64,000 nt of DNA from Promethearchaeota archaeon (GTDB lineage Archaea > Asgardarchaeota > Lokiarchaeia > Sigyniarchaeales > SOKP01). Below the pieces are notes generated by a model. It saw only the letters and a program-made list of their open reading frames with translations, was not told the DNA's origin and made no database searches. Below are positions 4,314 through 32,360 of the stretch, piece after piece; position 1 is the stretch's first letter, and each line of letters begins with the position of its first letter. A program made the position numbers and the translations under genes. Where the stretch lies: contig JAHPZA010000007.1 of the NCBI GenBank assembly GCA_019058445.1, forward strand, positions 20,129 through 84,128, in the 5' to 3' direction.

Positions 4314-4331
4314 TTTTTCTTCACCAATCTC

Positions 4332-5636: not shown

Positions 5637-5679
5637 ATTAATGATCCTTTTTATATATCTATAATAATATTATAATTGA

Positions 5680-7298: not shown

Positions 7299-7517
7299 TA
7301 TTTAAGATATTTTATCTGATTTAATTTGCTTTTTACATTGTTTTTTAGTGATTTTAAGTATTTATATCAAAAATAATTATACTCGATATTATCTAAATAT
7401 ACCTCTTAAAATTAATATTACAATAAATCATCAGTCTATCTAGATAATATTTCATTTTATAGACAGTAAAATCGATTATAATTTAACACAAAACGATTTA
7501 TAAAGTTGTAAAACAAT

Positions 7518-8330: not shown

Positions 8331-8429
8331 TATATTAATCTTTTTTTATTTTACTTGTACTAAATTAAATTAGTTTAAATGAGTTTTTCAAAGGTTGTTT
8401 ATAAAATCAGCTTTTTAAAAAAAAACAAA

Positions 8430-8579
8430 TTAACGGACTTTAATCCTTTTAATCACGTCGGGACGCTTCTTATAGAGAATTCTAAAACCGCAATGCGAGC
8501 ATTTGATCCCTGGCAAAGCGCTTAGTTCCTTCTTGCTTACTTCTTTGCCACAGTTTTTACGTGCGCATACGTATTTAAT
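8430..8579 (-). CDS. rpoP: RNA polymerase subunit P (Rpo12), absent from the ORF track; probable ATT start
   Basis: manual translation IKYVCARKNCGKEV...IKCSHCGFRILYKKRPDVIKRIKVR; in-frame TGA three codons upstream of ATT. Confidence 0.92.
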   Translation of the reverse strand: MKYVCARKNCGKEVSKKELSALPGIKCSHCGFRILYKKRPDVIKRIKVR

Positions 8580-8744
8580 TTTTGATCACATCAAAAGATT
8601 TTATTTTATAATATCTTGAATAATTAACAAGAATTAAATTTTTCGCTTTTATTCAAGGTCTTGTTGAAGCAAAAATAATCATTTATCTTTAGGAATCGTT
8701 ATTAAATAAAGGATTGTTTAAAATTTAGAAGATTGATTTGAGAG

Positions 8745-13761: not shown

Positions 13762-14124
13762 ATGATACCCCTAGTAAAAAAAGATATTTTAATTGAGAAT
13801 TTAAAAATTTATCTGGTCTTATTTAAGTTACATAATAGTTTCCTCTTGTTAATTTCTGATCAAAAAGAGATGGGCCTTGGAAATGTGACTCTGGGAAGCC
13901 CTCCATTGACCGAGGGATTAAAATCAATTTCAGCATCTTATAACTTATTCGGTGTTGATAAAAAATTATTAAGTACCATAATTTCTGAGAAAGCGTCTCA
14001 TATTTTGAAAAAACCCGTTTTATTACTCCTTTTCTTAAGAGATAAAATAAAAGAGGAAGAAATTGCAAAATCCCTTTTGAATTTTTTAATTGAAATTTTG
14101 ACAGAAATAGTTGAAAAAGATTAA
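13762..14124 (+). CDS. PAC4-like proteasome assembly chaperone (putative)
   Basis: NSFLLLISD, LGNVTL, LFG, KKPVLL pattern. Confidence 0.5.
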   Translation: MIPLVKKDILIENLKIYLVLFKLHNSFLLLISDQKEMGLGNVTLGSPPLTEGLKSISASYNLFGVDKKLLSTIISEKASHILKKPVLLLLFLRDKIKEEEIAKSLLNFLIEILTEIVEKD

Positions 14125-14192
14125 AATTAGAGAATTATTATATAAACATATAATATTCCGAGATCGCTGGTTAATAGTTAAAATCTCTTCAA

Positions 14193-14352
14193 GCAGGGAT
14201 AACCAAGCCTGGTCAACGGTGCCGGACTCTATTGAGATTTATTCTCATAAGCTGGACTCAAGATCTTTAAAAATTAATTTCCGTTGATATACCAACTCTG
14301 ATGAGATATCCGGTCTCATAGGAGTACGTGGGTTCGAATCCCACTCCCTGCA
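14193..14352 (+). tRNA. tRNA-Leu(CAA), two introns (14228-14257 at 32/33; 14263-14307 at 37/38)
   Basis: GCAGGGA/TCCCTGC acceptor stem, long variable arm, GTTCGAAT; two BHB motifs give the mature arm CCGGA-CTCAAGA-TCCGG. Confidence 0.85.
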
Positions 14353-14358
14353 TCTAAT

Positions 14359-14476
14359 GCGGGAATTGCCAAGTCTGGTTAATGGTGTTTTCGAGCTTTT
14401 TCGAAAGCCGACTTGAGGCGCTGGACTTAGAATCCAGTCTTGTAGAAGTTCGGGGGTTCAAATCCCTCTTCCCGCA
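14359..14476 (+). tRNA. tRNA-Leu(TAG) with D-loop intron (~14383-14415)
   Basis: GCGGGAA/TTCCCGC acceptor, CTGGA-CTTAGAA-TCCAG; hairpin insert before the 3' D-strand. Confidence 0.9.
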
Positions 14477-14648
14477 TAAAAATATTAAAAATGATGAGGG
14501 TAATTATTTTCTTGTTTGAAACTCATAATGGAAAATTTTTAATTTCTTAATTGATTTAAACATCTACCTAGCAAACTAGTTAATTATGATTTTTTTAAAG
14601 GAAAAACCTTAGTTAACTATCATTCTAAAATTTGCTGGTATTTACACA

Positions 14649-14753
14649 GCTCTCGTAGTGTAGCTCGGCCAAAGTCTCCTTGATTCCAAAGGTGACAGCG
14701 AGGCATGCTAGGCTTTCACCCTGGTGACCCGGGTTCAAATCCCGGCGAGAGCA
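14649..14753 (+). tRNA. tRNA-Glu(TTC) with D-loop intron (~14673-14702)
   Basis: GCTCTCG/CGAGAGC acceptor, CTAGG-CTTTCAC-CCTGG, CCGGG-TTCAAAT-CCCGG. Confidence 0.9.
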
Positions 14754-14789
14754 TCCAACGCTTTATGCGTTTATGCATTGGAAAACCAA

Positions 14790-14956
14790 GCCTCCGTAGC
14801 TCAGTTAGGTAGAGCACTGAGTATTAATCATGCTCAGCCCGCCCAAAGCACCCGGCTTTCATAATTGATTACCAGTATGACCGGAAGTTAACCGGGCGGT
14901 CGCATGTTCGATCCATTAGTGATTCGAATTCCGATTCGCTGGATAAGCCGGGGGCG
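14790..14956 (+). tRNA. tRNA-Asn(GTT) with three introns (~14813-14846 D-arm; 14858-14886 at 33/34; 14917-14946 at 63/64)
   Basis: GCCTCCG/CGGGGGC-G acceptor; removing the inserts restores CCCGG-CTGTTAA-CCGGG and GCATG-TTCGATC-CATGC. Confidence 0.85.
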
Positions 14957-15128
14957 TACTTTATTCCCTATTGCTTTTTATTTTAAAAATTTGATCTTTC
15001 CTGCACGACCATCATTTTTTCTTTATATATTTTCAAAATATTCAACAATAAATTTTCTACTTAAAAATAGCATAATAACCATTTCAATCGTAAATTTAGA
15101 GATTAATTCGATATTAATAGGTGATTCA

Positions 15129-15467
15129 ATGGAAGGAGGAAAGAAAGGATATATAGTACTCTGGATATTCATGGGAATAATTTTATTTATAACTATACTT
15201 TATCCCATTTTTGGCATAAATTTAAAATATCAGATTGGAACTGCTATAAGCACAACGCTTATAAAATTAGGAAGCATTTTGATTATGGTAGGGACTATAA
15301 TCCTTATTTTAGGCTTTATTATGTTATTTATCTCTGGGACAGGTTCAGGAGCGTTAAAACCAATGTTAATCGGGTTCTTTTTAATAGTTCTGGGAGTAAT
15401 ACTTATTGATCCGATGGGTACAAGCTATTTCACTCAAGGCAGAGAGGCCCCGAAAGGATATCATTAA
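15129..15467 (+). CDS. small membrane protein with VirB2/CedA-like hairpin (true start ATG 15129)
   Basis: GGTGAT Shine-Dalgarno before MEGGKK; three hydrophobic segments; the longer ORF overlaps tRNA-Asn. Confidence 0.75.
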   Translation: MEGGKKGYIVLWIFMGIILFITILYPIFGINLKYQIGTAISTTLIKLGSILIMVGTIILILGFIMLFISGTGSGALKPMLIGFFLIVLGVILIDPMGTSYFTQGREAPKGYH

Positions 15468-15564
15468 TATTAATTAGAATTATGTTAATTCTGCCTTGAA
15501 TAAAAAATAACATAGTGTTTTTTAGAGATAAAAGTCAAATTCCCACATAAAAAATTCAACAAAT

Positions 15565-15798
15565 TCATACTCTAAAATATCTTAAACCGGTATATAATCC
15601 TGTCATCCACACAAGCATTATACCCGAAACAATAAGTAAAACAGCGTAGCGTTTTGCAAAACGTCCTCCAATAATCAACAATACAAATCCAGCAATAAGG
15701 CCCAAAAAACCTAATAGTGAAGCAAAAGCAATTAAAAATTGAATTGCATCCGCTACTCTTGAAAAATACCCTGTGTAAATCATTTTAAATTTCCTCAT
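15565..15798 (-). CDS. small two-helix membrane protein, VirB2/CedA1 pilin-like
   Basis: hydrophobic helix - GGRFAKRY loop - hydrophobic helix. Confidence 0.7.
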   Translation of the reverse strand: MRKFKMIYTGYFSRVADAIQFLIAFASLLGFLGLIAGFVLLIIGGRFAKRYAVLLIVSGIMLVWMTGLYTGLRYFRV

Positions 15799-15902
15799 AT
15801 TTTAGGGACGCGAAGTATTGTACTTAAGAAGAAGTTAAGTTGAATATATTTAAAAGAAAAATATTGATCTCTTTTAAGTGATATTTCAAACTAATCTGCT
15901 AT

Positions 15903-16700
15903 CTAGTAATATTCGGATAACTTATTATTAACTTTCTCATGAATTTCTCTACAAATATCGGTTTTAATTTCATCTGGCACATATTGCATATAAGATTCTA
16001 CTGTGTGGTTAATAATGGGCTTAATACTGGCCATAAATTTTTCAATTTTGACTTCCTTTGCGAGATATAGTTTTTCGTAAGTATTTATATAGGACCTATT
16101 TAATGTTTTTAGCCAAGTCTGCCCTATAGATTCCAGATTTTTTCTAATTTGAATTGATTTTTTATCATTATAATTTTCAAACACCCAATCATATTTTTCA
16201 AAAACCTCACTAAAATGATCTAAAATGTAGTCCTGAATTCTTAAACTCAAATCGGTATTCGCATTCAAAAAGACGATAATCATGTAATTTTTATCTTGAA
16301 AAAATATTTTTATTTTTATGTTAGTACCGCCAATTCCAACATGCCGCAGATTTTCAATTTTTACATTTTCAGCAAATCCAATCAACGAGCTAAGATACAT
16401 TGAGATAAAATCTGAAAGATCATCCTGATCTTGATTTAAATATTTTTCAATTGGACCAAATCTATTTCTACTATTTCCATCATATTCATATGTTAGTATT
16501 GAGATTCCAGCTTTATTAGATAGTATAATACCGATAATTGGGGGGATTTGATTAAAGTTAAATAAAGATAAAAATGCTCTCCTTGAATTGAGTTCACTTC
16601 CAATAAGAAATTTGTCGTAATCATAAGGAATATTAGAACTATTATCAATAACTGGCAAGTTATTTAGAGGTTTTTCAAACTTATGATCTAATGCTCTCAT
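15903..16700 (-). CDS. longin/roadblock-like domain protein
   Basis: IIGIILSNKAGISIL, helix DFISMYLSSLIGFAE, three strands ending YMIIVFL, helix. Confidence 0.55.
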   Translation of the reverse strand: MRALDHKFEKPLNNLPVIDNSSNIPYDYDKFLIGSELNSRRAFLSLFNFNQIPPIIGIILSNKAGISILTYEYDGNSRNRFGPIEKYLNQDQDDLSDFISMYLSSLIGFAENVKIENLRHVGIGGTNIKIKIFFQDKNYMIIVFLNANTDLSLRIQDYILDHFSEVFEKYDWVFENYNDKKSIQIRKNLESIGQTWLKTLNRSYINTYEKLYLAKEVKIEKFMASIKPIINHTVESYMQYVPDEIKTDICREIHEKVNNKLSEYY

Positions 16701-16893
16701 TGTTGATTAATATAAAATACAAAATTCGCTTATAAGAAGAATAGACAGAAAGTTTTGTAATTTGAAAATCCTATAATTTTTTCGTGAAATGCGGGTTTCA
16801 TGAAGATTTATATATATCCCGATATTACCAATTTAAATTATTTTTGTATGAAGAGTCTTTTTTTTTTAAATATCTTGGATTTAACAATGATTA

Positions 16894-18429
16894 ATGAGAG
16901 CACGTAATAAAACTGTAGTTATGTCAAAGGTTGAAAATTGGATTCAGAAAGGATCAAAATATGTCGAATTAGGTGATTTCAAAAGTGCTATTGAAATTTT
17001 TCAAAAAGGATTAAAAGATGAGCCAGAGAATGAGAAACTTTTACTCAATCTTGGGAATTTATATGATGATATAGGGGATTATAATAAAGCAATTGACGTA
17101 TATAAAAAAATTTTAGGGATGGATGATCAAAATAAAACTGTTTGGTATAATTTAGGAAATTCCTTAAGGAAAAATAAAGAATTTTACTCTGCTATTAAAG
17201 CGTATAAAAGAGTTATTGAAATAGACGTTTACCAATTGAATGCATGGAATAATCTAGGTTGTGTTTATTACGAGATTGGAGAAAAAGAAAATGCTATTGA
17301 TATACTCAAAAAAACTTTAAATGTAGATTCAAATTACAAATTAGCCTGGTATAACCTTGCTTGTATATATTCCCAAATGCGAGAGTATGATAAATCTATT
17401 CAAATTTTTAAAAAAGCAATAGAAATTGATCCAGGATACAAAAAGGCATGGGATAAGCTAGAGATTGTTTATAAGAGAAAAAATGAATTCACATTTGATT
17501 TAAAAAATATAAAAATTCTTAGGGGTGGAGATTGGAAAGTTGAAGGAGATAACAGTATTTTTTATTTTAAAGTAAAAATAATAAATAACTCACAATATCT
17601 TCTTTCTAATATCCAAATAATACTCACTTCAAAACCTAAAGGATTGAAAATAAAACGTGATAGAATTCAAATCGAATCACTTAATCCTCATTCATTTATT
17701 GCTCCAAGATTTAAATTTAAGGCGAAAGAAAGCTGTGTAGGAGAAATAATAAAGGGAATGACATTATTTATTGATTATCTTGGAAATAGTCATACAATTG
17801 AAATTAAACCATTTAGAATAAAGTATGTATGCAATTTGCTTGTCAAGAAAAAAGTTACCAAAGATGTTTTCTATGAAAAAGTATCGAAGATGGATGGCAA
17901 TAGGATATTATTTGATTGTAAAGGCCAAATTGAAGATATAAATAATATAATTTCAGATATTTTAAAAAAAAATAATTTTTATTTATTAAAACAATTACCA
18001 GATTATCAAAAAGGAGGTTATAGAAAATTAGAGGGTTTTGCGCAGGGAAAATATGATAATAAAGAGGTAGCACTAGCGGTTTATTTAGAACAGAAGTTAA
18101 ATGAACATACTCAACTAATAATTGATGCAATGAGTGAAGATAAAGCCAAAACAATCGATATTTTAAGAGATATAAGCTCGCAATGTAATGAGATAAAGAT
18201 TAGTACAGAATTAATTAAGGAATACACATCGAAAATAGAGGAAATATTTGAAAGGGTTGACGATCTCGAGTCTTTTCTGATTAAAAATCTCGGTTCAGAT
18301 TGGACAAAAGTGAGATATGCTTGGCAAGAATATAAAGAAGGTATAATAGACAAAAAACAATTAATTAAAGAATTTATTAAAGTATTAGGCAAAAAATTCA
18401 TTCTAGCTTTAGTTAAGAAGTTTATCTAG
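16894..18429 (+). CDS. TPR-repeat protein with adaptin-appendage-like (Ig plus platform) C-terminus
   Basis: about five TPRs (W.NLG..Y...A...Y/FKK); beta-rich VKIINNS..LSNIQI..IESLNP segment followed by an alpha/beta domain. Confidence 0.75.
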   Translation: MRARNKTVVMSKVENWIQKGSKYVELGDFKSAIEIFQKGLKDEPENEKLLLNLGNLYDDIGDYNKAIDVYKKILGMDDQNKTVWYNLGNSLRKNKEFYSAIKAYKRVIEIDVYQLNAWNNLGCVYYEIGEKENAIDILKKTLNVDSNYKLAWYNLACIYSQMREYDKSIQIFKKAIEIDPGYKKAWDKLEIVYKRKNEFTFDLKNIKILRGGDWKVEGDNSIFYFKVKIINNSQYLLSNIQIILTSKPKGLKIKRDRIQIESLNPHSFIAPRFKFKAKESCVGEIIKGMTLFIDYLGNSHTIEIKPFRIKYVCNLLVKKKVTKDVFYEKVSKMDGNRILFDCKGQIEDINNIISDILKKNNFYLLKQLPDYQKGGYRKLEGFAQGKYDNKEVALAVYLEQKLNEHTQLIIDAMSEDKAKTIDILRDISSQCNEIKISTELIKEYTSKIEEIFERVDDLESFLIKNLGSDWTKVRYAWQEYKEGIIDKKQLIKEFIKVLGKKFILALVKKFI

Positions 18430-18558
18430 ATTTTTTTTTCACTTATATTTTGCCTATTATAGTTTATTTTTAATTTAAAGGATAAATCTTCAATCTAATT
18501 TTTACTAAACTTAGAACTGAAATTTTTAATGTAGATATTATTCTTTATCTAATACGGA

Positions 18559-18577
18559 TTTTGTCGGAGTTTTTATA
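18559..18577 (+). promoter_or_regulatory. TTTTGTCGG motif plus TATA box upstream of the ATPase operon
   Basis: TTTTGTCGG-AG-TTTTTATA, same spacing as at 23558. Confidence 0.55.
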
Positions 18578-18614
18578 TTTAATTCTAAATTATTTTATAA
18601 AATTTAGCAGATTA

Positions 18615-21443
18615 ATGATTTTTTTTTCTAAATATCTTATAATTCTCTTAGGTTTTTTAGTATTTTTTCTTCTCCTAACACCATTCTATTTAAGAATTAA
18701 GGAAAAGAGGGAGAAAACAAGAGCTTATGAACTATATTATTTGTTTCTAGGTATTTTGATATACATTTTTTCTTTTTTAGAAACAGTTATATATCCACTT
18801 TCGGATAATTCACCCTTTCTATTAATAATTGAATTAGAAATGGTTTTCATTTTATTTCTTTTCAACATACTGTATTATTTTAGTCAACAAAACGCTCAAG
18901 ATGAATGGACTACTATTTTATATCTAAGTATTATCATTTTACTTTCTCACATAGTTATTTGTGGAATTTATTTATCATTTTTAGTAGGAACTATTATTTC
19001 TCTTTTCATTGCATTGTTAAGTTTTACTATCATAATTCCATATAATAAGGACTGGAAATTAAGAGGTAATCTCATTATTTTTTCCTTATTAATTTATTAT
19101 TCACTTATAGAAAATATACTCTTTATCTCAATTATTTCATTTTGTATCACTATAACACTTGTTTCCCTTGTACACGATGAGATCCGCTTAAGAATTGTAG
19201 CTGTATATCCGGGATTGATAATAATTCTTAAGCGTATAATCTTTAGACCTAAAATCCTTATGAATAAATTTAGCATTATTTCAGATATAGAAAAACCTAA
19301 GAATTTAAATACAAATAAAAAAGTTAAGTTTTTCCAAGTAAAAGTTAAAATAATCCAGAGAAAACTTGAACAAGAACAAGATCCGTTAAATCTATATCAA
19401 TTGAATGAAAGAAGTTTTTTAATTGATCTTCTCCCAGTAAAAGCCACTTATGTTCTTGAAATTATATCTCATAAAAAATTTTCCTTATCATTTATAACAA
19501 AACATAGGAATAAAGAAAAAGCTCACGAACAAGGTTTAACGATATTAACTAAATTAAAAAGTCTTTATGAGGGAATTGATGGGGAAATAAGCGTTATTAA
19601 AATCTCTAGCAAGGAAATCTACAAAAAGGATCGATATTGGGAAATTAAAATCCCCAAACCACCATTCATAGAGAAAATGACGTTTATTAGGGATATTATA
19701 AATCTTTTTGATTTAAATGAAGAAAAAATAGAGATTTATATCATGTGGAAGCGAGTCTCATCATTAAACCAATTTAGAATAAAAAAAATACGAGAGGATG
19801 TAAGAAATATAAAATTTAATGATGCAGATGAGAAGGAGAATTTCTTAGAAATGTGGCAAGGAGATCTTTATAAATTGAGAATTTTTTTCACTTTCAAAGT
19901 CTTTGAAAAAGATGTCAGATTAAGAAATCAAAAAATCCGAGAAATTGAAGCCATGCTAAAGACTCTCGCTATGTCAAGTAGAAATGAGACTAAGATAGCT
20001 AAAATTAAAAAAGCTTCACCTTTTGCAAATGCAAACATCATAAGTAATAGATTATATGGAGGTCGCTATATAACATCTAAAAGCTTGGACTTTGATGTTC
20101 TTCATGGAATTCCTTTACCTCGATCTTACGCATTGGAAGATGAGAATATTATTAATTTGGATGTAGAAGACCATGATTTAAATTATATTTTAATTGGAAA
20201 TTATATTAGAAATGGACGGGTTTCAGAAAAAAAGATTCCAATTCATAAAAATATATTTAGTCAATCAGTTTTAATAGGTGGGCAACCGGGTTCAGGAAAG
20301 ACTTACCTTTTGAGCCAAATTACAAAAGAATTTTATACCAAATGTCCAGATATTGGGATAATGATTATTAATTTAGGAAAAGGGAATCAAGAATTACTTT
20401 ACAAATTTGATAAAATTTATAAATATGGGAAATCAAATTTAAGAGTTCCTTATTTTATCAGGGGAAAATTTCCAAGAAGGAGTTTACAAGAAACTGCTAA
20501 GTATTTAGTTGCTGCGGTTGGGTTAAAAAACATTGTTGAGATAAATATGTTTAATGTAATGCAATTATTTGAACAAAAAAGGGGACAGCCCAAAACTGCT
20601 AAAGTACTTTTTAATAATTTATTAAAATACTTTGAATTTCGACCATATCATTCCAAATTTCAAACAAATATCATAAGAGCGATAGAAAATCGAGTTCTGA
20701 GTATGTTATCAGATATGAGACTAGAAAAAACATTAGAATTATATAATAATCCCTATAAAATGCCATCATGGTTTGAGGAATGGCGAAAGGGTAAAAAAGT
20801 ATATATTGATTTATCTAGTTGCACAATCTATGAAAAAAGACTATTATGTAATGCAATTTTTCAAATTGTTCGATCTTGTGTACCAGATAAGGAGGAAGGT
20901 AATCTAAAAAACATCATTCTTCTAGATGAAGCACATCAAATCTTAGAAAAGCCTTCTTTACCTGCTGATCCTGACGATGATGATTATATTAGCAGACAAT
21001 CGTTAAAGGATATTTTTAATGAATTATTAAGGGAATTTCGTTCTAAGGGCGTTTCATTTATAATATCAGACCAAACACCATATACTTTATTCGATTGTGC
21101 GACAATATTGCCCAGTTTAAAATTTCTTTTCAGATTAGGACATTTATCGGCGTCTATTATGGGTTCAAATGAAAAAGAAGAAGCTCTTTTACCAGAACAA
21201 GAAAATAGACATTTTATCGTAGTAAACGGTGTAACTGGCGAAAAATATAGAGGAAAAACTCTTGATTTGCCCATTCCAACAAGATTATATAATAAAAGGA
21301 AGCAATTTGAAAGGGAATATGAAAATACAAACAAATTTTGTCAATTTTGTCATCAGATCATAGATATTGATGCTGTTTTCTGTCATAGATGTGGGAGCAA
21401 ATTAATTTATGATACCTTTATAAATTCAAATTCAAAATTATAG
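18615..21443 (+). CDS. membrane-anchored HerA/FtsK/VirB4-superfamily ATPase (likely start ATG 18615)
   Basis: about six N-terminal TM helices; GQPGSGKT, IILLDEAH, REFRSKG...DQTP; C-terminal CxxC..CxxC ribbon. Confidence 0.88.
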   Translation: MIFFSKYLIILLGFLVFFLLLTPFYLRIKEKREKTRAYELYYLFLGILIYIFSFLETVIYPLSDNSPFLLIIELEMVFILFLFNILYYFSQQNAQDEWTTILYLSIIILLSHIVICGIYLSFLVGTIISLFIALLSFTIIIPYNKDWKLRGNLIIFSLLIYYSLIENILFISIISFCITITLVSLVHDEIRLRIVAVYPGLIIILKRIIFRPKILMNKFSIISDIEKPKNLNTNKKVKFFQVKVKIIQRKLEQEQDPLNLYQLNERSFLIDLLPVKATYVLEIISHKKFSLSFITKHRNKEKAHEQGLTILTKLKSLYEGIDGEISVIKISSKEIYKKDRYWEIKIPKPPFIEKMTFIRDIINLFDLNEEKIEIYIMWKRVSSLNQFRIKKIREDVRNIKFNDADEKENFLEMWQGDLYKLRIFFTFKVFEKDVRLRNQKIREIEAMLKTLAMSSRNETKIAKIKKASPFANANIISNRLYGGRYITSKSLDFDVLHGIPLPRSYALEDENIINLDVEDHDLNYILIGNYIRNGRVSEKKIPIHKNIFSQSVLIGGQPGSGKTYLLSQITKEFYTKCPDIGIMIINLGKGNQELLYKFDKIYKYGKSNLRVPYFIRGKFPRRSLQETAKYLVAAVGLKNIVEINMFNVMQLFEQKRGQPKTAKVLFNNLLKYFEFRPYHSKFQTNIIRAIENRVLSMLSDMRLEKTLELYNNPYKMPSWFEEWRKGKKVYIDLSSCTIYEKRLLCNAIFQIVRSCVPDKEEGNLKNIILLDEAHQILEKPSLPADPDDDDYISRQSLKDIFNELLREFRSKGVSFIISDQTPYTLFDCATILPSLKFLFRLGHLSASIMGSNEKEEALLPEQENRHFIVVNGVTGEKYRGKTLDLPIPTRLYNKRKQFEREYENTNKFCQFCHQIIDIDAVFCHRCGSKLIYDTFINSNSKL

Positions 21444-21456
21444 TAGGTAATATATT

Positions 21457-22143
21457 ATGAGTGAAATAAATAGTGATGAATATGAGGAATACGAGGAATA
21501 TGAAGGAGAGCAAGATGAATCAGAAGAAAATGAACAAAATAAAGAACTTCAAGTGGATTATGGATATGATCAAGAAAAAGAACAAGAAGATAAACTTAAA
21601 GTAGATTATGGATACGATCAAGAAAAAGAACAAGAAGATAAGCTCCAAGTAGATTATGGATGCGATCAACAAGAAGAACAAAAAAAAAAAGATCATATTG
21701 ATAAAAAAAATAATGAAATAAGATCAGAAGAAGATAAATTCAAATCAGAAAAAGGAGCTTTATTTGGAGGAGAAAAATCGAAGGAGAATTTATACAAGAC
21801 TAATAATAATATTACAGAAAAGGATAAAATTAAGGATTTAGAAGAAAAAAAAAATGAGTCAGAAAACAAAATAAAAAACCAGAAAAAACAAAGTTCTAAA
21901 GATAAAAGGGGTAAAAGAGGTAAAAGAGGCAGAAGAGGCAAGCGTGGACGTCGAGGGAAGAGTGGTAAGTCTAAAGGAGGTATGTTAGATTTTAGAACAT
22001 TAAAAAAAGAGAAAAAGGAAGAGAAGAAAAAACGAGGAGTATTTAAGAAAACAGAGGAAGAAATAAAAGAAGAAATTAGAAAAGAAATATATAAACAACT
22101 TCAAGATGAACAAATTAAGAGAAAGGCAGGTATATTAAGATGA
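21457..22143 (+). CDS. low-complexity bipolar (acidic N / basic C) repeat protein
   Basis: E/D-rich N-terminus, 16-aa repeats, G[KR]R triplets; 13 nt after the ATPase gene. Confidence 0.8.
   Translation: MSEINSDEYEEYEEYEGEQDESEENEQNKELQVDYGYDQEKEQEDKLKVDYGYDQEKEQEDKLQVDYGCDQQEEQKKKDHIDKKNNEIRSEEDKFKSEKGALFGGEKSKENLYKTNNNITEKDKIKDLEEKKNESENKIKNQKKQSSKDKRGKRGKRGRRGKRGRRGKSGKSKGGMLDFRTLKKEKKEEKKKRGVFKKTEEEIKEEIRKEIYKQLQDEQIKRKAGILR
21547..21681 (+). repeat. 48-bp coding tandem repeat, ~2.8 copies (L[QK]VDYG[YC]DQEKEQEDK)
   Basis: units start at 21547, 21595 and 21643. Confidence 0.9.
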
Positions 22144-23045
22144 AAAGAGGTCAATCTGTTTCAGAGGGATTAAAGCAATACAAAAAAACGATGTCAGAAA
22201 AATTTAGTGATTGGAAAGAAGATTCTTATGGGCCTTGGAAAGAAGAGACCTATAAGCCATGGAAAAAAGAATTTTCTAAGAATGTGAAACGATTTAATAA
22301 ACAATTCAAAAAGATGCTTGTCCGTTGGAAGAGGAATATGTTAGAAAAATATAAGCAATGGCGTAAGAATAAGGTAAAAAGAGAAGCAGGGTTGCAGATA
22401 AAAATAAAAAACATAGAAAAGGTGGAAATAGGGAATAAAAAGATCAATTACCATAATCATCTCAATTATTTCCCTTCAAATGAGGGGCCTACAGAATTTG
22501 AGTATCAGAATATTCGAGAGAGAAATACGTTTCCTGTAAGAAATCAATATCCGGAAATTGAAGATCGATATTATTATGAGAAAACTGCATACAATTTGGA
22601 TGAAGATATTAGATCACAGAAATATTTAGGATATGATCGAGGAAAGGGAATTCAAAAAAATGTTGATTTTAATAGTTTATTTCGGGATTTTGCCCTAATT
22701 CAGGATTTACTGAGAACGAAATCACATCAAGAAATTTTTATTAAATGTCGTTATTTAATTGAGTCTTTTCTCGAGAAAATTGCGGATATGATTGGAATTC
22801 AATATAGAAATGTCCAACATTTCTTAGCAAGCTTAACAAATATGAATCTTAAGAGAAAATTCATATTCTATGATGAGATTATTGGGTATACTAAGTTTTT
22901 AAATGCAAATCTACATAATGTAGATAGGTTCATGGCTCACTCAATTTATATCCTTACGAAAAGAATTATTAACAAATTAGAAAGCATTTTGAGTAGAAAA
23001 TCGAATAATAATTTTTATTCAGAATATGGAGAAATCTTTCATTAA
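22140..23045 (+). CDS. Trp-periodic amphipathic N-terminus plus degenerate HEPN/DUF4145-like C-terminus
   Basis: ATGA overlap with the upstream gene; WKEDSYGP-WKEETYKP-WKK; CRYLIESFL...FLNANLH. Confidence 0.65.
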   Translation: MKRGQSVSEGLKQYKKTMSEKFSDWKEDSYGPWKEETYKPWKKEFSKNVKRFNKQFKKMLVRWKRNMLEKYKQWRKNKVKREAGLQIKIKNIEKVEIGNKKINYHNHLNYFPSNEGPTEFEYQNIRERNTFPVRNQYPEIEDRYYYEKTAYNLDEDIRSQKYLGYDRGKGIQKNVDFNSLFRDFALIQDLLRTKSHQEIFIKCRYLIESFLEKIADMIGIQYRNVQHFLASLTNMNLKRKFIFYDEIIGYTKFLNANLHNVDRFMAHSIYILTKRIINKLESILSRKSNNNFYSEYGEIFH

Positions 23046-23160
23046 TACTCAACTGATTCAATTCAATTTTTTTTATTACTTATCTTTAAAGCTTGTTGTA
23101 GTTTAAATAATTTAAATCCAAATATAGAGTATATTATTTAGCTAAAATTATCAGATTATT

Positions 23161-23496
23161 ATGACTCAAGAATATAAAAATTGTCCTCGTTGCAATGGGA
23201 AGAAGATTGTAGATTTAGATAACAAAATAAAATGTTTAGATTGTAAGTTAACGTTTGATAAAAAAATCATTAAGTTAATTGAAGATAAAGCATATATCTT
23301 GGCAAATGAGGAAAATGAGGAAATTCTTAAGGAAATATTAGATTCTAAAAATATTAATGAATTTATAGATTTGTTAAATGAAGTTGATGGAAATTTTTCA
23401 CACTGCCCCTATTGTTTTGGAAAAATAGAAAAACAGCTTAAAATTTGTCCCTCTTGCGGAATTTTCTTAGAAGATTATGCAAAAATTAAGAATTAG
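23161..23496 (+). CDS. double zinc-ribbon protein
   Basis: four CxxC pairs. Confidence 0.75.
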   Translation: MTQEYKNCPRCNGKKIVDLDNKIKCLDCKLTFDKKIIKLIEDKAYILANEENEEILKEILDSKNINEFIDLLNEVDGNFSHCPYCFGKIEKQLKICPSCGIFLEDYAKIKN

Positions 23497-23557
23497 CAAA
23501 ATTATGATAATTTATACTAATTTAGAATTTTAAATTTTCTTTCCAATGTAACACTAG

Positions 23558-23576
23558 TTTTGTCGGGATTTTTATA
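23558..23576 (+). promoter_or_regulatory. TTTTGTCGG motif plus TATA box; probable leaderless transcript
   Basis: TTTTGTCGG-GA-TTTTTATA ending ~21 nt before ATG 23598. Confidence 0.55.
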
Positions 23577-23597
23577 GCTATATTTAGAACTAAATCG

Positions 23598-24212
23598 ATG
23601 ATATCTCAGGAAAATTCAGATTCTTCGGACCCATTTTCCGTTTTTCAATCGGTAAATGACGCCATAGTGGGAATATTAGTCCCATTTAACGAGATTTGTA
23701 TCAATATTTTTCGTTTTGGAAACTGGATTTTATTTCTTATTTTTATATTTTTAGGAGTAAATCTATTAATGAGTGCCCATGAAAAAGAAACTGAAGAAAG
23801 AATTCACGGAAAAAACTTAGAGTATATTCAAAAAAGAGGTCGTATTGGATCTTTTATTTTAATTTTAATAGCCATTGGTTTCTTATTCAAAGGACTAACG
23901 ATACTAACGATAATTAGCTTTAGTTCATTTTCAGCTCCGCCCGTTTTTCGATGGCTAAAATGTCAATATCTATATAATAATATAAGTACGTTAGAGGACC
24001 TGAAAAAGTATGATGTCTTTGAAGTAAGTTTATTTCTATTTATTAGTTTAGTGTCTTTCATTTCAATAATTCTAATTAGTTTTGGTATTTATCTTCTTCT
24101 TTTTAATAAGAGAATTCTTAGAACACATTATAAAGCTTGTTCATTCATTGTTATTGGAGTTATTTTAGCTTGTATCTTTGGGATTACTCCAGGATTACTC
24201 CTAACTTTGTGA
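23598..24212 (+). CDS. 4-TM membrane protein (two hairpin units); paralog of 27684..28301
   Basis: shared AIG, PPxF, KYxxFE, SF, NxRI and FG motifs. Confidence 0.8.
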   Translation: MISQENSDSSDPFSVFQSVNDAIVGILVPFNEICINIFRFGNWILFLIFIFLGVNLLMSAHEKETEERIHGKNLEYIQKRGRIGSFILILIAIGFLFKGLTILTIISFSSFSAPPVFRWLKCQYLYNNISTLEDLKKYDVFEVSLFLFISLVSFISIILISFGIYLLLFNKRILRTHYKACSFIVIGVILACIFGITPGLLLTL

Positions 24213-24251
24213 GATGTTCATAAAGGAATTATGATTTAAAGCTTAATATAA

Positions 24252-24776
24252 TTATGATTTTAATTGTTTTTCATATAAATCTTTGATATATTCATTTAAT
24301 TCTTTAAATTTCATTTCATTAATCGTCGTTAATTTATCTTCTTCCCAGTTAAAGGTAGTCATACTCTTATCTGGTTTATGGTTGAATTCTAAATCTTCAT
24401 ACTTAGGTACAAAATCCTCATTAAAATCCTCTTGATCCTTAAATTCATCATCTTCTTCTATAGTGTTATCAATTGCCTCATATTCACTAAAAGATAACCT
24501 TTTTAGAAAAAAATATACTAAAATACAAAGAAAGATAAACACAAGATTACTTGGAATTACTGTTTCTGAGGTTAAAATTACATCTGTTTTATTATACAAA
24601 TTAGGAAGTGAATTTAGGATATAAAAACTCACTGATAACAATATTAACACAGTTATTACGAGCTTTAATCTGTGAAATGTAGGTTGATAAGCTTGAACTT
24701 TATAGAAAACGGCTATTGAAATAGCTAAAGCTGTAGTTAAAATAACAAATGTTAAAAATAATTCGAATGTGACCAT
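24252..24776 (-). CDS. 3-TM membrane protein with acidic tail
   Basis: three hydrophobic segments followed by an E/D-rich C-terminus. Confidence 0.75.
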   Translation of the reverse strand: MVTFELFLTFVILTTALAISIAVFYKVQAYQPTFHRLKLVITVLILLSVSFYILNSLPNLYNKTDVILTSETVIPSNLVFIFLCILVYFFLKRLSFSEYEAIDNTIEEDDEFKDQEDFNEDFVPKYEDLEFNHKPDKSMTTFNWEEDKLTTINEMKFKELNEYIKDLYEKQLKS

Positions 24777-25062
24777 CTCTATCTTTTTCTCTTTATGATC
24801 CTATAAATCGCCTTATCGATATCAATTAATTATTTAAAATTAAGTATAAAAAGTTCGAGATTTATCCATGGCAGTTATAAAAAGTAAGTAAATTTACTAA
24901 ACCAGTTTTTTTTTTAAATTGAGAAATTTATATTTTTATAAGATTAGACTAATTAGATCTTTTTGTCGATAATACTTCGATTTTATAATTTTCATTTTAT
25001 TATTTTACAAATGAGCTAACAGTGAGATTAAATAGATTACATAGTTTTAAGTAATAAGCAAA

Positions 25063-26589
25063 TTAATCTTTAAAATAATTAAAAATAACTTTAAGAATTA
25101 AGTCTTTAAAACATTTTAACACTTTTTCCCCTTCTAACGCGCATACTGGATACACTACTAAAGAACCATCAGGATATTTAATTTCGTTAGGTAGATTTAA
25201 GATTCTTTTAAATATATCTAATGAAATCGCATTATCTAAATCTCTCTTATTTAGTTGCACGTTTATAGGGACTCTGAGATGTCCAATGGTATTTATTAGT
25301 TCCTGAAAGCTTTGTTTGTTTTGTTCCATCTTGGAAGGATCAGAATCACCTATAAAAATCACTCCGTCAGCGCCCTCAAGGATCCGCCTGCGAGCTACCG
25401 AAAAATTTTCAAGGGCAGGAACAGTTACAATTTGAATAATTACCCCATATTTAGTATCCTCAATTTCAAACTTTAATAAAATATACTGAGAATCATGCCA
25501 CAGTGTTGAACCGTTAGTGGTTTCAATGGAATATCCTTTGGTTAAATTCATAGATGAAAATTTTTTTTGTAGTAACTTAAAATTAGAGGTTTTTCCGGAT
25601 TTAGAAGGGCCCCAAAAAATTATTCTAAATTGTAGGATTTCATCACAATTTTTTAAGCTTCGATTATCTTTAGCTTTTTCAATTTCATGATCTATATACT
25701 TAGTTAATTCTTTATATCGTTTCCTAATCGTAGCTTCGGTTACTCCAGCTGCTAAAGAAATTTCTTTTTGGGTTCTTCGTTCTCCCTCCTGTAGCGCAGC
25801 AAAATAGAGTGCCCCCCCAGCAAGCCCAGCAGGAGTTTTTCCGGCGGTGAGTCGATACTTTTTTGCTAAATTTAATATTTTCGTGGCACGATTTTTCGTA
25901 TTTTCTGAGAGATTAAGATTAGCTGCAAATTTGGGAATATAACTTAAAGGTGAACTTGCATTAAGATTTAGCTTTAATTCTCTGAAGACAAGTCTATAAC
26001 ACCGGGCTAGTTTTTTTTTCTCAATAGCAGTAAATTCCAAAAAGTCTTCAATAATTTTGGGGACATTATTAATTTTGCATGCTGTATAAATTGAAGCTAT
26101 CACAATGGCCTCAATGGATCGACCTTTAGCAAGATGCATTACTTTTCTATAAATATGAGCTGAAGATTCCTTTAGATATTTTGGCAAATTCATTTGAGAT
26201 GAGATTCTGTCTAATTGAGTCATTGCTTCCGCTAAGTTTTTCTCTTTAGGCGTATAAATCATCGATCTTTTATTCCAAGTTCTTAGCCTTTTGATTTCTC
26301 CAATCATTTTCGGACTAATTTTGTTCCCTTTAGCATCTCGATTCGATTTTCCAATGACCGTGTTTAAACCTTTATCATATTGCATTAAATTCGTTGGAGC
26401 TCCGATTCTAACTTTTTTTGCCTTATCTTCTGAGTTAAAAGCACGCCAATCAACCCCAGAATTAATAAGATGTTGCTTAATTACCAATCCACATGCGTTA
26501 CAAATGATTTCGCCGCGAAAAGCATCATTTATTAATATTTCATTCCCACATTCAGGACATATATCTGAAACTTTTTCTGCGACATTCAT
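25063..26589 (-). CDS. TFB fused to C-terminal MglA/Arf-like small GTPase domain
   Basis: complete TFB (CPECG, DWRAF, GVTEATIRKRYKEL) then GPSKSGKT, GADGVIFIGDS, NKRD, CA in one frame. Confidence 0.9.
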   Translation of the reverse strand: MNVAEKVSDICPECGNEILINDAFRGEIICNACGLVIKQHLINSGVDWRAFNSEDKAKKVRIGAPTNLMQYDKGLNTVIGKSNRDAKGNKISPKMIGEIKRLRTWNKRSMIYTPKEKNLAEAMTQLDRISSQMNLPKYLKESSAHIYRKVMHLAKGRSIEAIVIASIYTACKINNVPKIIEDFLEFTAIEKKKLARCYRLVFRELKLNLNASSPLSYIPKFAANLNLSENTKNRATKILNLAKKYRLTAGKTPAGLAGGALYFAALQEGERRTQKEISLAAGVTEATIRKRYKELTKYIDHEIEKAKDNRSLKNCDEILQFRIIFWGPSKSGKTSNFKLLQKKFSSMNLTKGYSIETTNGSTLWHDSQYILLKFEIEDTKYGVIIQIVTVPALENFSVARRRILEGADGVIFIGDSDPSKMEQNKQSFQELINTIGHLRVPINVQLNKRDLDNAISLDIFKRILNLPNEIKYPDGSLVVYPVCALEGEKVLKCFKDLILKVIFNYFKD

Positions 26590-26753
26590 TATAACTAACT
26601 TTTAACATCATATAAAATAGAAATTATAAAAAATACACGAAAATAGGTTAGACATCCAGGCTTTATTAAATTCAAGAAAATGTTTGTATAAAAACAAGTC
26701 ACTAGAAAAAGTTTAAAATTTTTTCTTTAAATAGGCTTAAAATACAGAAGGAT

Positions 26754-27161
26754 ATGATTAAGACTGAAATAAGATATGAAAAATCGCTTGGAAGACTGAA
26801 ATGTGATATTTGTGACACTAGATTTCGAGAAAACGCAAGGATTTATAAAGTTAATAATGACATAGGGTATGTTTGCCAACAATGCAATGATAATTTTTCT
26901 AAGGAAGATATATATCTGATTATAGACTTGTTTAAATCTTATGGCGGGTATTTTGGGAAATTCGATGATATAAAATTATCCTTAGATAATATTTTAACGG
27001 AATTTTATGATAGAATTTCGGCTGACGGTAATTTAAAAAACACTTTCGAATATAATAGGAAATTATGTCATAAAGCACTGCTAAATGGCTATACCCCTAA
27101 ACAGCTTATTCAAAAAATGAAAGTTCCAAAAAATTATAAACTTAAAAAACGCACCATTTAG
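26754..27161 (+). CDS. zinc-finger hypothetical protein
   Basis: CDIC and CQQC pairs; divergent from the TFB-GTPase gene. Confidence 0.7.
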   Translation: MIKTEIRYEKSLGRLKCDICDTRFRENARIYKVNNDIGYVCQQCNDNFSKEDIYLIIDLFKSYGGYFGKFDDIKLSLDNILTEFYDRISADGNLKNTFEYNRKLCHKALLNGYTPKQLIQKMKVPKNYKLKKRTI

Positions 27162-27347
27162 ATAGATATTGCTTGCTTAAATCACTAGACCTGTGAACTC
27201 ATATAAATTAAATTACCAATAAAATTTGGTTTGATACCCCTTTTGACAGAAATATTTGAGTTTAAATAATCATCAAAACAAATATTGATAGTTTAAATTA
27301 GATTTGAATATTTAAAAGTTCAAATTTAACTTTTATGGTGGGAGAAT

Positions 27348-27599
27348 ATCTCAAAATCAATCAATTTTCATGACTTAATTGAATCAGAAAAGATCTTACC
27401 TCCAATACAATTTAAATTGATTAAAGCCTTAATATTTAAAGGACCATTAACGAGAAAAGAATTATCAATTGAGCTCAATATTCCTCGGAGTACCATTTAC
27501 GACAATTTAAAGAAACTTGAAAAGCGGAACGTTGTTATAAAATACATATTAATAGAAGGTAAACAAGGGCGTCCTCCTGTCTTTTGGCAAATCAAATGA
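27348..27599 (+). CDS. small winged-HTH (TrmB-like) regulator; probably starts upstream of TTG 27417 (e.g. ATC 27348)
   Basis: LTRKELS..LNIPRSTIYDNL..L, GRPPVFW; paralog of 36402. Confidence 0.75.
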   Translation: MSKSINFHDLIESEKILPPIQFKLIKALIFKGPLTRKELSIELNIPRSTIYDNLKKLEKRNVVIKYILIEGKQGRPPVFWQIK

Positions 27600-27683
27600 A
27601 CTCAAAATTAGTTTTAACTAATTATCTTTTATTTTTTTTTAGTTTAAATAATTACTTTACAAATTAAAAATGAGGTATTTAAT

Positions 27684-28301
27684 TTGCCAAAAGATCTATT
27701 AGTGTTTAAAATTTTTGAGATTGGTGATTCTGATGATATCTTCTTCATAATTAATCAGGGAATACTTATGTTCTTTTTCTTTTTGAAATATATATTTATT
27801 TTCATCCTCTTAATGATATCTTTACTAACATTAACAAAATTAAGAGGAATTTATCTGCATGAAAGATATAATAAATTAGAGGAGAGTGAAAACAAATTGC
27901 TGAAACCCCGATTAATTTTGGGTATAACATATCTTTTTCTGGCAATTGGTATCGCTTTTAATTTTCTGATTTATTTTTTAATATGGATATCATATTTTCT
28001 TCCACCGCCATTAATTTTCCAGCTTCTGGATGTTATTGATCCGGGATTCTATGATCCTAATAGGATTCGCGATCCCAATAAGAATAAATATGAATTCGAG
28101 CGATTTATTTATCTTCTATTTGCATTAGCATCTTTTGAAGCATGCCTGCATTTAATCTTGACAATATGGTATTTAATAAATAATAATAGAAATATTAGCA
28201 ATCCTAGAGTAGTTATTCATAATTTAATTTGGTCTCTTTCTGTTTCAATTGTTTTTGGATTCTTAACCTTCGCACCATACTTTTTGCGGGCAACTTGGTG
28301 A
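27684..28301 (+). CDS. 4-TM membrane protein; paralog of 23598..24212
   Basis: collinear motif match to the paralog. Confidence 0.8.
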   Translation: MPKDLLVFKIFEIGDSDDIFFIINQGILMFFFFLKYIFIFILLMISLLTLTKLRGIYLHERYNKLEESENKLLKPRLILGITYLFLAIGIAFNFLIYFLIWISYFLPPPLIFQLLDVIDPGFYDPNRIRDPNKNKYEFERFIYLLFALASFEACLHLILTIWYLINNNRNISNPRVVIHNLIWSLSVSIVFGFLTFAPYFLRATW

Positions 28302-28391
28302 TGTTTGTTAAGCTAATCATGCTTTTCAGAAAAATCATTTATAAAAAACGTTAATATTAAATAATTGTATTTAGAATATTTTAAGATTTAA

Positions 28392-29798
28392 ATGACTGAA
28401 AGCAAAGGAAGTAAAGATCCATCTAATTTTAAAAATATAGAGCAAGAAGTCTTGAGGTTTCTTGATTCCAGAGGGTCAATTCGTGCAGCTCTTCTGCACA
28501 AGATCGAGAAACATTTTTGCGGTCAGAAATCCATTATAAATCTTCGTAAAGAGTTTTTATTATCATGTCTTTGGCAGATAGCTAAGGATAAGAAGATAGA
28601 AATAATTATCCCTGAGCTATTCCGCGTTAAATGGAGTCAAAAAAAGCTAACAAATTTAAAATATTTAAAGGATGGGATTTATCTATGTAGAAAGTTTCCG
28701 ATGATTCGAAATAAACTTCTTAAATCTATTTTAAATAATTATTACTTTGATTCAAGAAAGAGAAGTTTTAGTGAATTAGATCAAGGAATAGAATATCTTA
28801 AATTAATTTTAGAGAAGGTAAGAAATTTTAACAAAAAGATAATCATATATAACCCTTTAGGCAGCAATCCATTGGATATTTATGAAGAGAAGGCTCAATT
28901 TAATTATAAATTACAAAAAGCTAATTTTCAAATAAAACAAGATAACATGATTAAGGAAAAGTTAGATATTCCTTCAGAAGACCGGGCAGAGGCCTTGGCA
29001 GTAGTTCAAGGATATAGAAGTAGATATATGTGCTTTTATATTCCTTTAATTGAATCTATTTTAAAGACTATAGAGTATATTCAAGTACATAAGGAAGATC
29101 TTTCAGATTATGAAAAAGTTTTACAAGACTACACGGAAAAATTTGCCTATAATTGTATAGAATTTGTTAAGTCTGATTATATTGAAATAGAGCCAAATCC
29201 TTTAAGATGGGAAAGCATCTTCAACTATTTAGATCTTCCTATAAAAATTCTTGAGTATGATTTTAAATATATTAAATTTCATGGAAGAACATGGGAAAAT
29301 TATCAAATACTTAAAATTTGTATATATATTGAAAAACAAAAATCGAGTATTATAAAAAAATTGAAGAAATTAGGCTATGAAGAATTTCCTGAGGAAAATT
29401 ATGATGATCTTATTGCTATTGGTTTAAATATAGAGATCTATTATCCTTGCTCTACAATCGAGCATATCTATTTTTTAAGTAAATTTATATGCTTCTATTA
29501 TTTGTTTCTGTTATTTTATCACTCTTTTGAATACATCAAGGAAGTAAAACCGAAGATTCGCTTTACAAAGAAGGAGAAGAGTTTATATACAAAATTTTTA
29601 CCAGTGCTTACAAAGTTATTTAATTTAAATGAAAGTGAAAGTAAAGTTTCAAGGAAACTAGTTTTTAAATATTATACCCTTGATCCTGATGAACTGGAAA
29701 TAATTTTTAATCACTTTTTAATTAAAAGACTTAAAGAGATTGAAAAAAAATTGTTTTATTGGTGGAGATATAAAACAACTCTACTTAAACCGGCTTAA
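28392..29798 (+). CDS. hypothetical protein
   Basis: 468-aa ORF, no motif recognised. Confidence 0.75.
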   Translation: MTESKGSKDPSNFKNIEQEVLRFLDSRGSIRAALLHKIEKHFCGQKSIINLRKEFLLSCLWQIAKDKKIEIIIPELFRVKWSQKKLTNLKYLKDGIYLCRKFPMIRNKLLKSILNNYYFDSRKRSFSELDQGIEYLKLILEKVRNFNKKIIIYNPLGSNPLDIYEEKAQFNYKLQKANFQIKQDNMIKEKLDIPSEDRAEALAVVQGYRSRYMCFYIPLIESILKTIEYIQVHKEDLSDYEKVLQDYTEKFAYNCIEFVKSDYIEIEPNPLRWESIFNYLDLPIKILEYDFKYIKFHGRTWENYQILKICIYIEKQKSSIIKKLKKLGYEEFPEENYDDLIAIGLNIEIYYPCSTIEHIYFLSKFICFYYLFLLFYHSFEYIKEVKPKIRFTKKEKSLYTKFLPVLTKLFNLNESESKVSRKLVFKYYTLDPDELEIIFNHFLIKRLKEIEKKLFYWWRYKTTLLKPA

Positions 29799-32220: not shown

Positions 32221-32330
32221 TTTACTTCTTTTTTTTATTTTTTGTATGAATATATCTAACGACTCACATATTTTATTTAGCTAAGTATATAAACAACATC
32301 AAAAGCCAAAAAAAATAAAACATTTTATAG

Positions 32331-32355
32331 GAGGATTGCTAAGGAAAGCAATCTC
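32331..32355 (-). terminator. hairpin just after the stop of the upstream radical SAM gene
   Basis: GATTGCT-N6-AGCAATC inverted repeat. Confidence 0.4.
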
Positions 32356-32360
32356 ATTAA

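Follow-up and report, generated by a model that had tools for sequence, protein, structure and literature searches.

An accessory genomic island of a Promethearchaeota archaeon encodes a membrane ATPase of an Asgard-restricted family with a predicted VirB4-like layout, a candidate DNA translocase

The stretch analysed here (the window) comprises 64,000 nucleotides (nt) of contig JAHPZA010000007.1 (assembly GCA_019058445.1, positions 20,129 to 84,128 of the forward strand) from a Promethearchaeota archaeon, whose genome is called G000 below. It carries a 12.7-kb accessory island, and this report centres on an island gene encoding a large ATPase with a transmembrane (TM) domain, which we regard as a candidate translocase, and on the gene that follows it. 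The main features are given below in window coordinates (aa, amino acids; BRE, B recognition element; NTD, N-terminal domain).

14996 to 27730, no strand: accessory island, 12.7 kb, an insertion relative to related genomes
18564 to 18577, + strand: BRE/TATA-like element TCGGAGTTTTTATA, 38 nt before the ATPase ATG
18615 to 21443, + strand: ATPase gene, 942 aa, with TM domain, VirB4-NTD-like domain, HerA/FtsK-class ATPase and Zn ribbon
18615 to 19235, + strand: ~7-TM domain of the ATPase
19308 to 20075, + strand: VirB4-NTD-like domain of the ATPase
20133 to 21290, + strand: HerA/FtsK-class ATPase domain
21336 to 21404, + strand: Zn ribbon at the C-terminal end of the ATPase, residues 926-948
21457 to 22143, + strand: 228-aa acidic-repeat/basic protein, 14 nt downstream of the ATPase stop codon

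The open reading frame of the ATPase opens at TTG 18561. Since its homologs align from residue 19 (ATG 18615) and the promoter-like element lies at 18564-18577, ATG 18615 is the most likely start, which gives the 942-aa product. An earlier note on this DNA had described a membrane ATPase of ~940 aa with HerA/FtsK/VirB4-type motifs, and this held in all but the helix count, as ~7 rather than ~6 hydrophobic helices were found in residues 19-225. The frame is open and the catalytic motifs are intact: Walker A (GGQPGSGKT) is at 573, Walker B (LLDEAH) at 787, and the stretch 826-839 holds FRSKG (826) and ISDQT (835), which provide the Arg finger and the sensor-1 Gln. The G/K/D/E columns of these motifs are invariant in the family alignment (A1), and the combination of the four is the signature of the HerA/FtsK clade (PMC10853773). 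The membrane domain has conserved intramembrane residues of its own, Glu93 and His130.

The class of the ATPase was approached by sequence and by predicted structure. Pfam gave weak DUF87/HerA matches for the island protein and DUF87 in 22 of 30 family members, while VirB4 models were not matched. In phmmer searches of the PDB sequences, neither the island ATPase nor P0189, a second TM-anchored ATPase type treated below, retrieved anything useful; the family profile found only HerA, the STIV B204 ATPase and defence HerA there, with E-values of 1e-6 to 1e-3. The AlphaFold2 model of the soluble part (predicted local distance difference test, pLDDT, 88) had full-length TrwK/VirB4 as its top Foldseek match at 3e-17, followed by SIR2-HerA, DndH-C and Sulfolobus HerA at ~1e-13. 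When the NTD was modelled alone (pLDDT 85), all 11 of the 11 best PDB matches were TrwK/VirB4, so that both the complete soluble part and the NTD have their best PDB fold matches in bacterial VirB4 (TrwK of R388; PDB 7o41/7o43/8rtd). The best ESM Atlas matches of the NTD were DUF8128+DUF87+TrwB_AAD_bind clusters annotated as 'type IV secretory system conjugative DNA transfer', the composition of monoderm MPF-FATA/Patescibacteria VirB4, with TM-scores of 0.61-0.62 over 200 aligned residues and a root-mean-square deviation of 4 Å. Because the NTD fold, the deciding feature, matches TrwK/VirB4, the ATPase was assigned a VirB4/CedD-like layout; CedD consists of a TM segment, a VirB4-NTD-like domain and a HerA/VirB4 ATPase (PMC11868833). 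We conclude from these models that the architecture is VirB4/CedD-like at the level of the predicted fold, while by sequence the protein does not belong to VirB4. The earlier proposal of a VirB4/Ced-type ATPase, as opposed to a repair-HerA or packaging type, is supported by these fold matches, which point to the VirB4/CedB/CedD layout.

Two other classes were considered and rejected. Repair HerA of HerA-NurA systems (PDB 4d2i, 7f6d, 9x1m) resembles the island protein in its HerA/FtsK-class domain and the DUF87 matches of the family; however, the NTD model has no HerA match and no HAS barrel, Pfam scans revealed no NurA, Mre11 or Rad50, and the island protein is membrane-embedded. Viral packaging ATPases of the A32/B204 type are small and single-domain and come with capsid genes, a description that does not fit the island ATPase.

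When 1.84 billion representatives were searched exhaustively with HMMER, only 175 relatives of the ATPase were returned, and those named by organism came nearly all from metagenome-assembled genomes (MAGs) of Promethearchaeota, Lokiarchaeota or Helarchaeota, annotated as 'hypothetical protein' or in generic terms such as 'ATP-binding protein'. The family occurs in Asgard archaea only, and its distribution there is patchy. Its conserved core corresponds to residues 280-905 of the query; most members are soluble proteins of ~650 aa, and the TM-bearing subfamily (TM-ATPases) comprises proteins of 900-950 aa that are ~50% identical to the island ATPase. No full-length ortholog was found in the nine same-genus genomes searched, two of which (G008 and G006) have partial homologs cut by contig ends. 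Single-protein scans of genome contigs and viral contigs found no relative, and tblastn of the ATPase domain against the PLSDB plasmids gave nothing below E 0.2.

The charged repeat protein of the earlier note was recovered in the gene behind the ATPase. Four 48-nt tandem repeats encode four 16-residue acidic repeats in its 228-aa product, which contains 26% D+E and 27% K+R and has an RG-rich basic stretch. It has much in common with family F4, the gene after the TM-ATPase in the related loci L037-L040: the position, N-terminal MSE-acidic/aromatic repeats, a basic middle part and a C-terminal FxKTEEEI..YK motif. The acidic-repeat protein is the most constant partner of the TM-ATPase and is translationally coupled to it. 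Variable modules are fused to F4 or lie behind it, namely LAGLIDADG with or without an intein (L017, L037, L040 and L025, the last being a paralog locus of G000), three PDDEXK_5 domains (L038), two HNH_3 domains (L039) and helix-turn-helix (HTH) repeats of the sigma-r4 type (L015). In L021, an acidic-repeat protein of 1673 aa (3836-8857, − strand) is encoded directly downstream of a soluble family ATPase and has three TFIIB cyclin-repeat stretches (2e-19) and an HTH; judged by these domain matches, a TFB core is used here as a module of the ATPase partner. In two of the intein-bearing partners, the intein with its LAGLIDADG insert takes up residues ~246-698 of 708 (L017, 12783-14909) and ~295-742 of 749 (L037, 13401-15650), leaving a C-extein of only ~7-10 residues.

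Since the acidic-repeat partner carries variable nuclease or DNA-binding modules elsewhere, another reading is opened, the main and a serious rival of the translocase reading given below, although we hold it at less than an even chance. The locus would be a membrane-anchored version of the 'HerA/FtsK capture' defence systems (PMC10853773), its ATPase catching foreign DNA as it enters or replicates and handing it over to a variable nuclease or DNA-binding partner, with the island copy lacking the nuclease or having lost it. The exchangeable LAGLIDADG, PDDEXK_5, HNH_3 and HTH heads fit such a function, and so do the patchy, multi-copy distribution of the ATPase family and the SAVED, TIR-LRR, STAND and OLD genes that neighbour related loci. 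However, Pfam, NCBIfam and PHROGs scans found no nuclease domain in the island, and the nuclease families seen elsewhere are of homing-endonuclease types and may be selfish passengers. Moreover, the described capture systems, including DndH/DptH (PDB 7es4), SIR2-HerA and DUF4297-HerA, have a HAS barrel where the island ATPase has a VirB4-like NTD, and a polytopic ~7-TM domain with intramembrane charges, small TM partners and an acidic-repeat partner are foreign to them. If the locus is a defence system nevertheless, it would represent a new architecture of HerA/FtsK-based immunity.

Returning to the candidate translocase, the small membrane proteins encoded in and next to the island were compared with one another and with related loci.

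15129 to 15467, + strand: m1, 112 aa, 3-4 TM helices, family F11
15565 to 15798, − strand: m1b, 77 aa, 2-TM hairpin, family F5
23598 to 24212, + strand: m2, 204 aa, 4 TM helices, family F2
24252 to 24776, − strand: m3, 174 aa, 3 TM helices and an acidic tail; promoter motif copy at 24845-24858
27684 to 28301, + strand: m4, 4 TM helices, family F2; backbone gene outside the island

Four membrane proteins with a common hairpin had been claimed, of which a part stands: m2 and m4 are members of a single 4-TM family of ~205 aa (F2), and hhalign aligns family F5 of m1b with the hairpin at the C-terminal end of F2 (79.5%, E 1.5e-5), whereas m1 and m3 have no significant relation to F2 or F5. Compared directly by composition-corrected BLASTP, the membrane proteins of the island gave no match to one another. 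Because the N- and C-terminal halves of F2 show no significant hhalign match to each other, 'tandem hairpins' in this family are unproven. The N-terminal TM helices of m3 resemble the N-terminus of P0189-type ATPases (E 1e-4) as well as a 112-aa product encoded in the paralog locus L025. The assignment of these proteins as pilins found no support; in PDB sequences the F2 profile matched no pilin, only PsaJ by chance. The TM domain of the ATPase had no significant hhalign match to F2, F5, F11 and F19, and one of 22% to the P0189 N-terminus; ESM Atlas feature searches with this domain and with m2 found no usable match, and a complex prediction that paired this domain (A5) with F2 (A4) scored 0.01, which speaks neither for nor against an interaction.

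F2 homologs (38-43% identical to m2) immediately adjoin TM-ATPases in L015 and L037; F2 members also occur in L025 and beside the TM-ATPase of G008:C692. In L018 an F5 homolog immediately precedes the TM-ATPase, and in L026 an F5 homolog together with an m1 homolog of F11 (32% identity) adjoins a soluble family ATPase. The recurrence of F2, F5, F11 and F4 beside the ATPase family in other loci suggests that some of the island genes belong together. A protein of 646 aa (P0250), known from a single 3.4-kb ENA contig, combines the C-terminal F2 hairpin with a domain in common with the L015 partner protein (E 4e-6); a Rosetta-stone fusion and a gene-calling artefact are both possible explanations.

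Taken together, the island core may act as a translocase similar to a type IV secretion system (T4SS) or the Ced/Ted systems, using ATP to pass DNA, bare or complexed with protein, through the membrane domain of the ATPase, a reading that we favour tentatively and hold at somewhat less than an even chance. A hexamer-type ring of the HerA/FtsK-class ATPase would dock on the fused ~7-helix membrane domain, and ATP hydrolysis would thread the DNA or DNA-protein complex through the membrane. The acidic-repeat partner, which elsewhere carries LAGLIDADG, HNH, PD-(D/E)xK, HTH or TFIIB modules, would act as an adaptor or substrate-recruiting factor, and the small proteins of 2-4 TM helices, m1b and m2 and perhaps also m1 and m3, would accompany the ATPase. 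The fused 7-TM domain could play the part of VirB6, and the VirB3-VirB4 fusion is a precedent for an ATPase joined to a membrane subunit. The data themselves document the anatomy of the genes, the architecture at fold level, intact ATPase motifs, the insertion, the recurring neighbours and the conserved promoter element; from these we infer DNA as the substrate, transport across the membrane, its direction and control by the TFB-GTPase of the island, described below.

The Ced/Ted systems (CedD/CedB, TedB/VirB4; PMC11868833, PMC9905601) have a membrane-tethered ATPase composed of a VirB4-NTD-like and a HerA/VirB4 domain, small 2-TM and polytopic membrane proteins nearby and no relaxase, as does the island. 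No sequence similarity was detected between the two, and the likening to Ced/Ted proteins is by description. They also differ in that the anchor of the Ced/Ted ATPases has 1-2 helices, not a fused ~7-TM domain, and that the island, unlike Ced/Ted, has an acidic-repeat partner and a Zn ribbon and is accessory and patchy rather than lineage-conserved. Ced/Ted have a VirB2-like pilin (CedA1/TedC) with a 2-TM hairpin and the VirB6-like polytopic CedA/TedA; in the island, m1b is by its sequence a 77-aa 2-TM hairpin protein. Several features set the locus apart from a bacterial T4SS. The genome has no match to PF03135 (CagE_TrbE_VirB) at E-values up to 10, the ATPase family has none to AAA_10, the ATPase is only ~10% identical to bacterial VirB4, and no second ATPase, VirB6, VirB8, type IV coupling protein or relaxase was found in the island.

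Protein export was considered as well. The locus would then be a machine for protein secretion or envelope biogenesis similar to EssC/EccC of the type VII secretion system, exporting the acidic-repeat family with variable, toxin-like C-terminal heads instead of DNA. We judge this very improbable: no pattern of immunity-like genes was noticed, though none was looked for, the TFIIB, HTH and LAGLIDADG heads resemble DNA-binding modules more than toxins, no WXG-like substrates were found, and the ESX matches tie with unrelated folds.

The remaining features concern the transcription of the island and its other genes.

14190 to 14960, + strand: tRNA cluster, intron-bearing, left border of the island; sub-threshold Rfam signals, 82% nt identity to L033
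15903 to 16700, − strand: 265-aa protein, no family match; promoter motif copy at 16809-16822
16894 to 18429, + strand: TPR protein of 511 aa upstream of the ATPase (TPR_1 5e-35)
22140 to 23045, + strand: 301-aa protein, C-terminal domain in common with P0189
23161 to 23496, + strand: 111-aa double zinc-ribbon protein (DZR 6e-4), with a weak relative in L017
23563 to 23576, + strand: second motif copy TTTTGTCGGGATTTTTATA, 22 nt before m2
25063 to 26589, − strand: TFB paralog fused to an Arf/MglA-like GTPase (TFIIB 3e-36, Zn_Ribbon_TF 2e-13, Arf 3e-9)
26754 to 27161, + strand: 135-aa CxxC zinc protein, divergent partner of the TFB-GTPase

The shared promoter motif and the TFB-GTPase fusion of the earlier note were both found again. 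The motif TCGRRNTWTWTATA, a pattern derived post hoc, has four matches in the 64 kb against 0.18 expected; all four are in the island, where they precede the genes of the 265-aa protein, the ATPase, m2 and m3. TCG precedes 4 of the 125 TWTWTATA sites (0.7 expected), and the promoter segments of the ATPase and m2 are identical in 18 of 19 nt. An identical 17-mer, TTGTCGGAGTTTTTATA, precedes the TM-ATPase homolog of the congener G008 (41% protein identity), where the intergenic region is otherwise different, and this conservation is independent support for the post hoc motif. In G008, an AT-rich run of TAATA-type short repeats of ~60 nt (L043 940-1010, − strand), absent in G000, lies between the promoter element and the ATPase start. 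More distant TM-ATPase genes have a different conserved upstream word, CTCTAAC-TTTTTATA, in the same place.

In Sulfolobales, an alternative TFB (TFB3) controls ced/ups (PMC6101591), to which the TFB paralog of the island and its shared BRE-like element form a parallel. By this analogy it is attractive to infer that the TFB-GTPase may run a dedicated TFB regulon. The TFB-GTPase gene and its divergent 135-aa partner are kept as a pair in G008:C271 (L041 3402-5474; 53% and 43% identity) with no ATPase alongside, and G008 is the only other same-genus genome in which the fusion was found. The winged-HTH regulator of the earlier note was not confirmed, as no HTH family match was obtained outside TFB. 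Combined with the translocase reading, these data lead to a more specific proposal, which we hold to be unlikely as a whole: a lineage-specific, T4SS-derived DNA-transfer machine of Asgard (Lokiarchaeia-type) archaea in which a VirB4-type motor and its channel are fused, an acidic-repeat adaptor bears exchangeable DNA-recognition heads including TFIIB, and expression is switched via the BRE/TATA element by the TFB-GTPase.

Models of how eukaryotes arose give a central place to gene flow and contact between cells, yet for Asgard archaea we know of nothing on either DNA exchange or contacts with other cells. No VirB4-type system of Asgard archaea is described in the literature searched; the present analysis defines an Asgard-only ATPase family, its conserved partners and a candidate cis-element. 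If the T4SS-derived reading is true, a mobile gene-exchange apparatus would exist in the closest prokaryotic relatives of eukaryotes.

The island, 14996-27730, is an insertion, since three relatives join its flanks without it. The Lokiarchaeia-type metagenome contig L033 aligns with window 13879-14995 at 82% and then with 27731-28917 at 73%, its positions 1104/1298 joining window 14995/27731 with only ~190 bp between them. The same-genus contig G003:C212 is collinear from 7.5 kb of the window to the tRNA cluster and then continues directly with m4, a 468-aa gene and a radical-SAM gene, and G007:C85 also has an empty site at this position. The term 'domesticated, chromosomal', which had been applied to the system, is not upheld, as the 12.7-kb insertion is absent from these same-genus genomes and the ATPase family is patchy. 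Nor do the genes form one unified block. Orthologs of m4 at 70-82% occur in many Promethearchaeota MAGs with the same right-hand neighbours, and because they keep this backbone context in genomes without the island, m4 is not part of it.

The tRNA cluster at the left border had been taken as given. ARAGORN detected no tRNA in the window, and the Rfam tRNA signals at 14309-14745 are just below the threshold (28.4 vs 29 bits); the tRNA-like, intron-bearing stretch itself is conserved in relatives (L033 3-1104, 82%, up to window 14995). The cluster is probably real but intron-rich, and ARAGORN and Rfam presumably missed its genes because of several non-canonical introns.

An insertion exactly 3′ of a tRNA cluster, with congeners having empty sites, would also be expected of a decayed integrated mobile element or provirus, whose ATPase would serve the transfer or packaging of the element while the other genes were cargo. 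This is consistent with the mosaic character of the island, the modules of which are found separately elsewhere, and with m3 and the 301-aa protein, which look like pieces related to a TM-DUF87 ATPase; the two-domain fold of the ATPase is also present in large Bacillus-phage proteins of BFVD (6.5e-24). We nevertheless regard a decayed element as improbable. As stated in the earlier note, no integrase, relaxase, replication or capsid gene was found in the island by Pfam, NCBIfam and PHROGs scans; contig C7, which carries the window, has no tyrosine recombinase (PF00589) match; and no direct repeats flank the island. IMG/VR yielded no family member with the query used, the depth of the island in the source metagenome is even with that of its flanks, there is no trusted excision joint, and the intact ATPase frame and motifs do not suggest decay. 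A joint 14100->27766 seen in the source metagenome was not trusted, since one side has only 22 letters and it disagrees with the junctions deduced from relatives.

Another possibility is that there is no single system, and that the ATPase operon, the membrane genes and the TFB-GTPase pair are unrelated neighbours in a variable region. In line with this, the 265-aa gene, like the TFB-GTPase pair, occurs in G008 on a contig lacking an island-ATPase homolog (62% homolog in G008:C225, 6.4 kb), m4 is a backbone gene, and G000 has 13 TFB genes, so that chance proximity is possible. Co-occurrence in other Asgard genomes, which the earlier note had proposed to check, was confirmed for the small membrane families beside the ATPase family, but not for the TFB-GTPase, which is not syntenic with the ATPase elsewhere. 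Mere proximity is quite improbable, however, given the recurrence of F2, F5, F11 and F4 beside the ATPase family in independent genomes and in the paralog locus of G000, the near-identical 19-nt promoter segment common to the ATPase and m2, and the TFIIB repeats of the 1673-aa partner in L021. The paralog locus (L025, G000:C6:513000-532900) repeats m3-like, F2, TPR and soluble family ATPase genes, so that a TPR protein flanks the paralog ATPase as well. It adds a LAGLIDADG gene (664 aa) and F18 genes, and its immediate neighbour is an OLD-family AAA_15+TOPRIM gene, which makes the context Gabija-like.

P0189 represents a conserved type of TM-anchored DUF87/FtsK ATPase of 780-800 aa with three N-terminal TM helices, and a 79% ortholog of it is encoded elsewhere in G000. 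The 301-aa protein of the island shares a C-terminal helical domain with it (BLASTP E 3e-13 to P0189 618-744) and carries none of the modules associated with F4 (LAGLIDADG, PDDEXK_5, HNH_3, HTH, TFIIB). The TM-ATPases of L015, L038 and L040 have a P0189-type ATPase no more than 10 kb away, a pairing that is reminiscent of the VirB4 and coupling-protein or CedB and CedD pairs. Copies are located at L030 957-3359 and G000:C6:1269827-1272157; in L030 and L033 the ATPase of this type has genes for argininosuccinate lyase and the thermosome nearby, and the lyase was confirmed beside the G000 copy, ~6 kb from which there is a TFB paralog. In the conserved backbone to the right of the island, window 30595-33905 holds two adjacent B12-binding radical-SAM paralogs together with m4 and the 468-aa gene; the order and orientation of these paralogs differ between L030 and L033.

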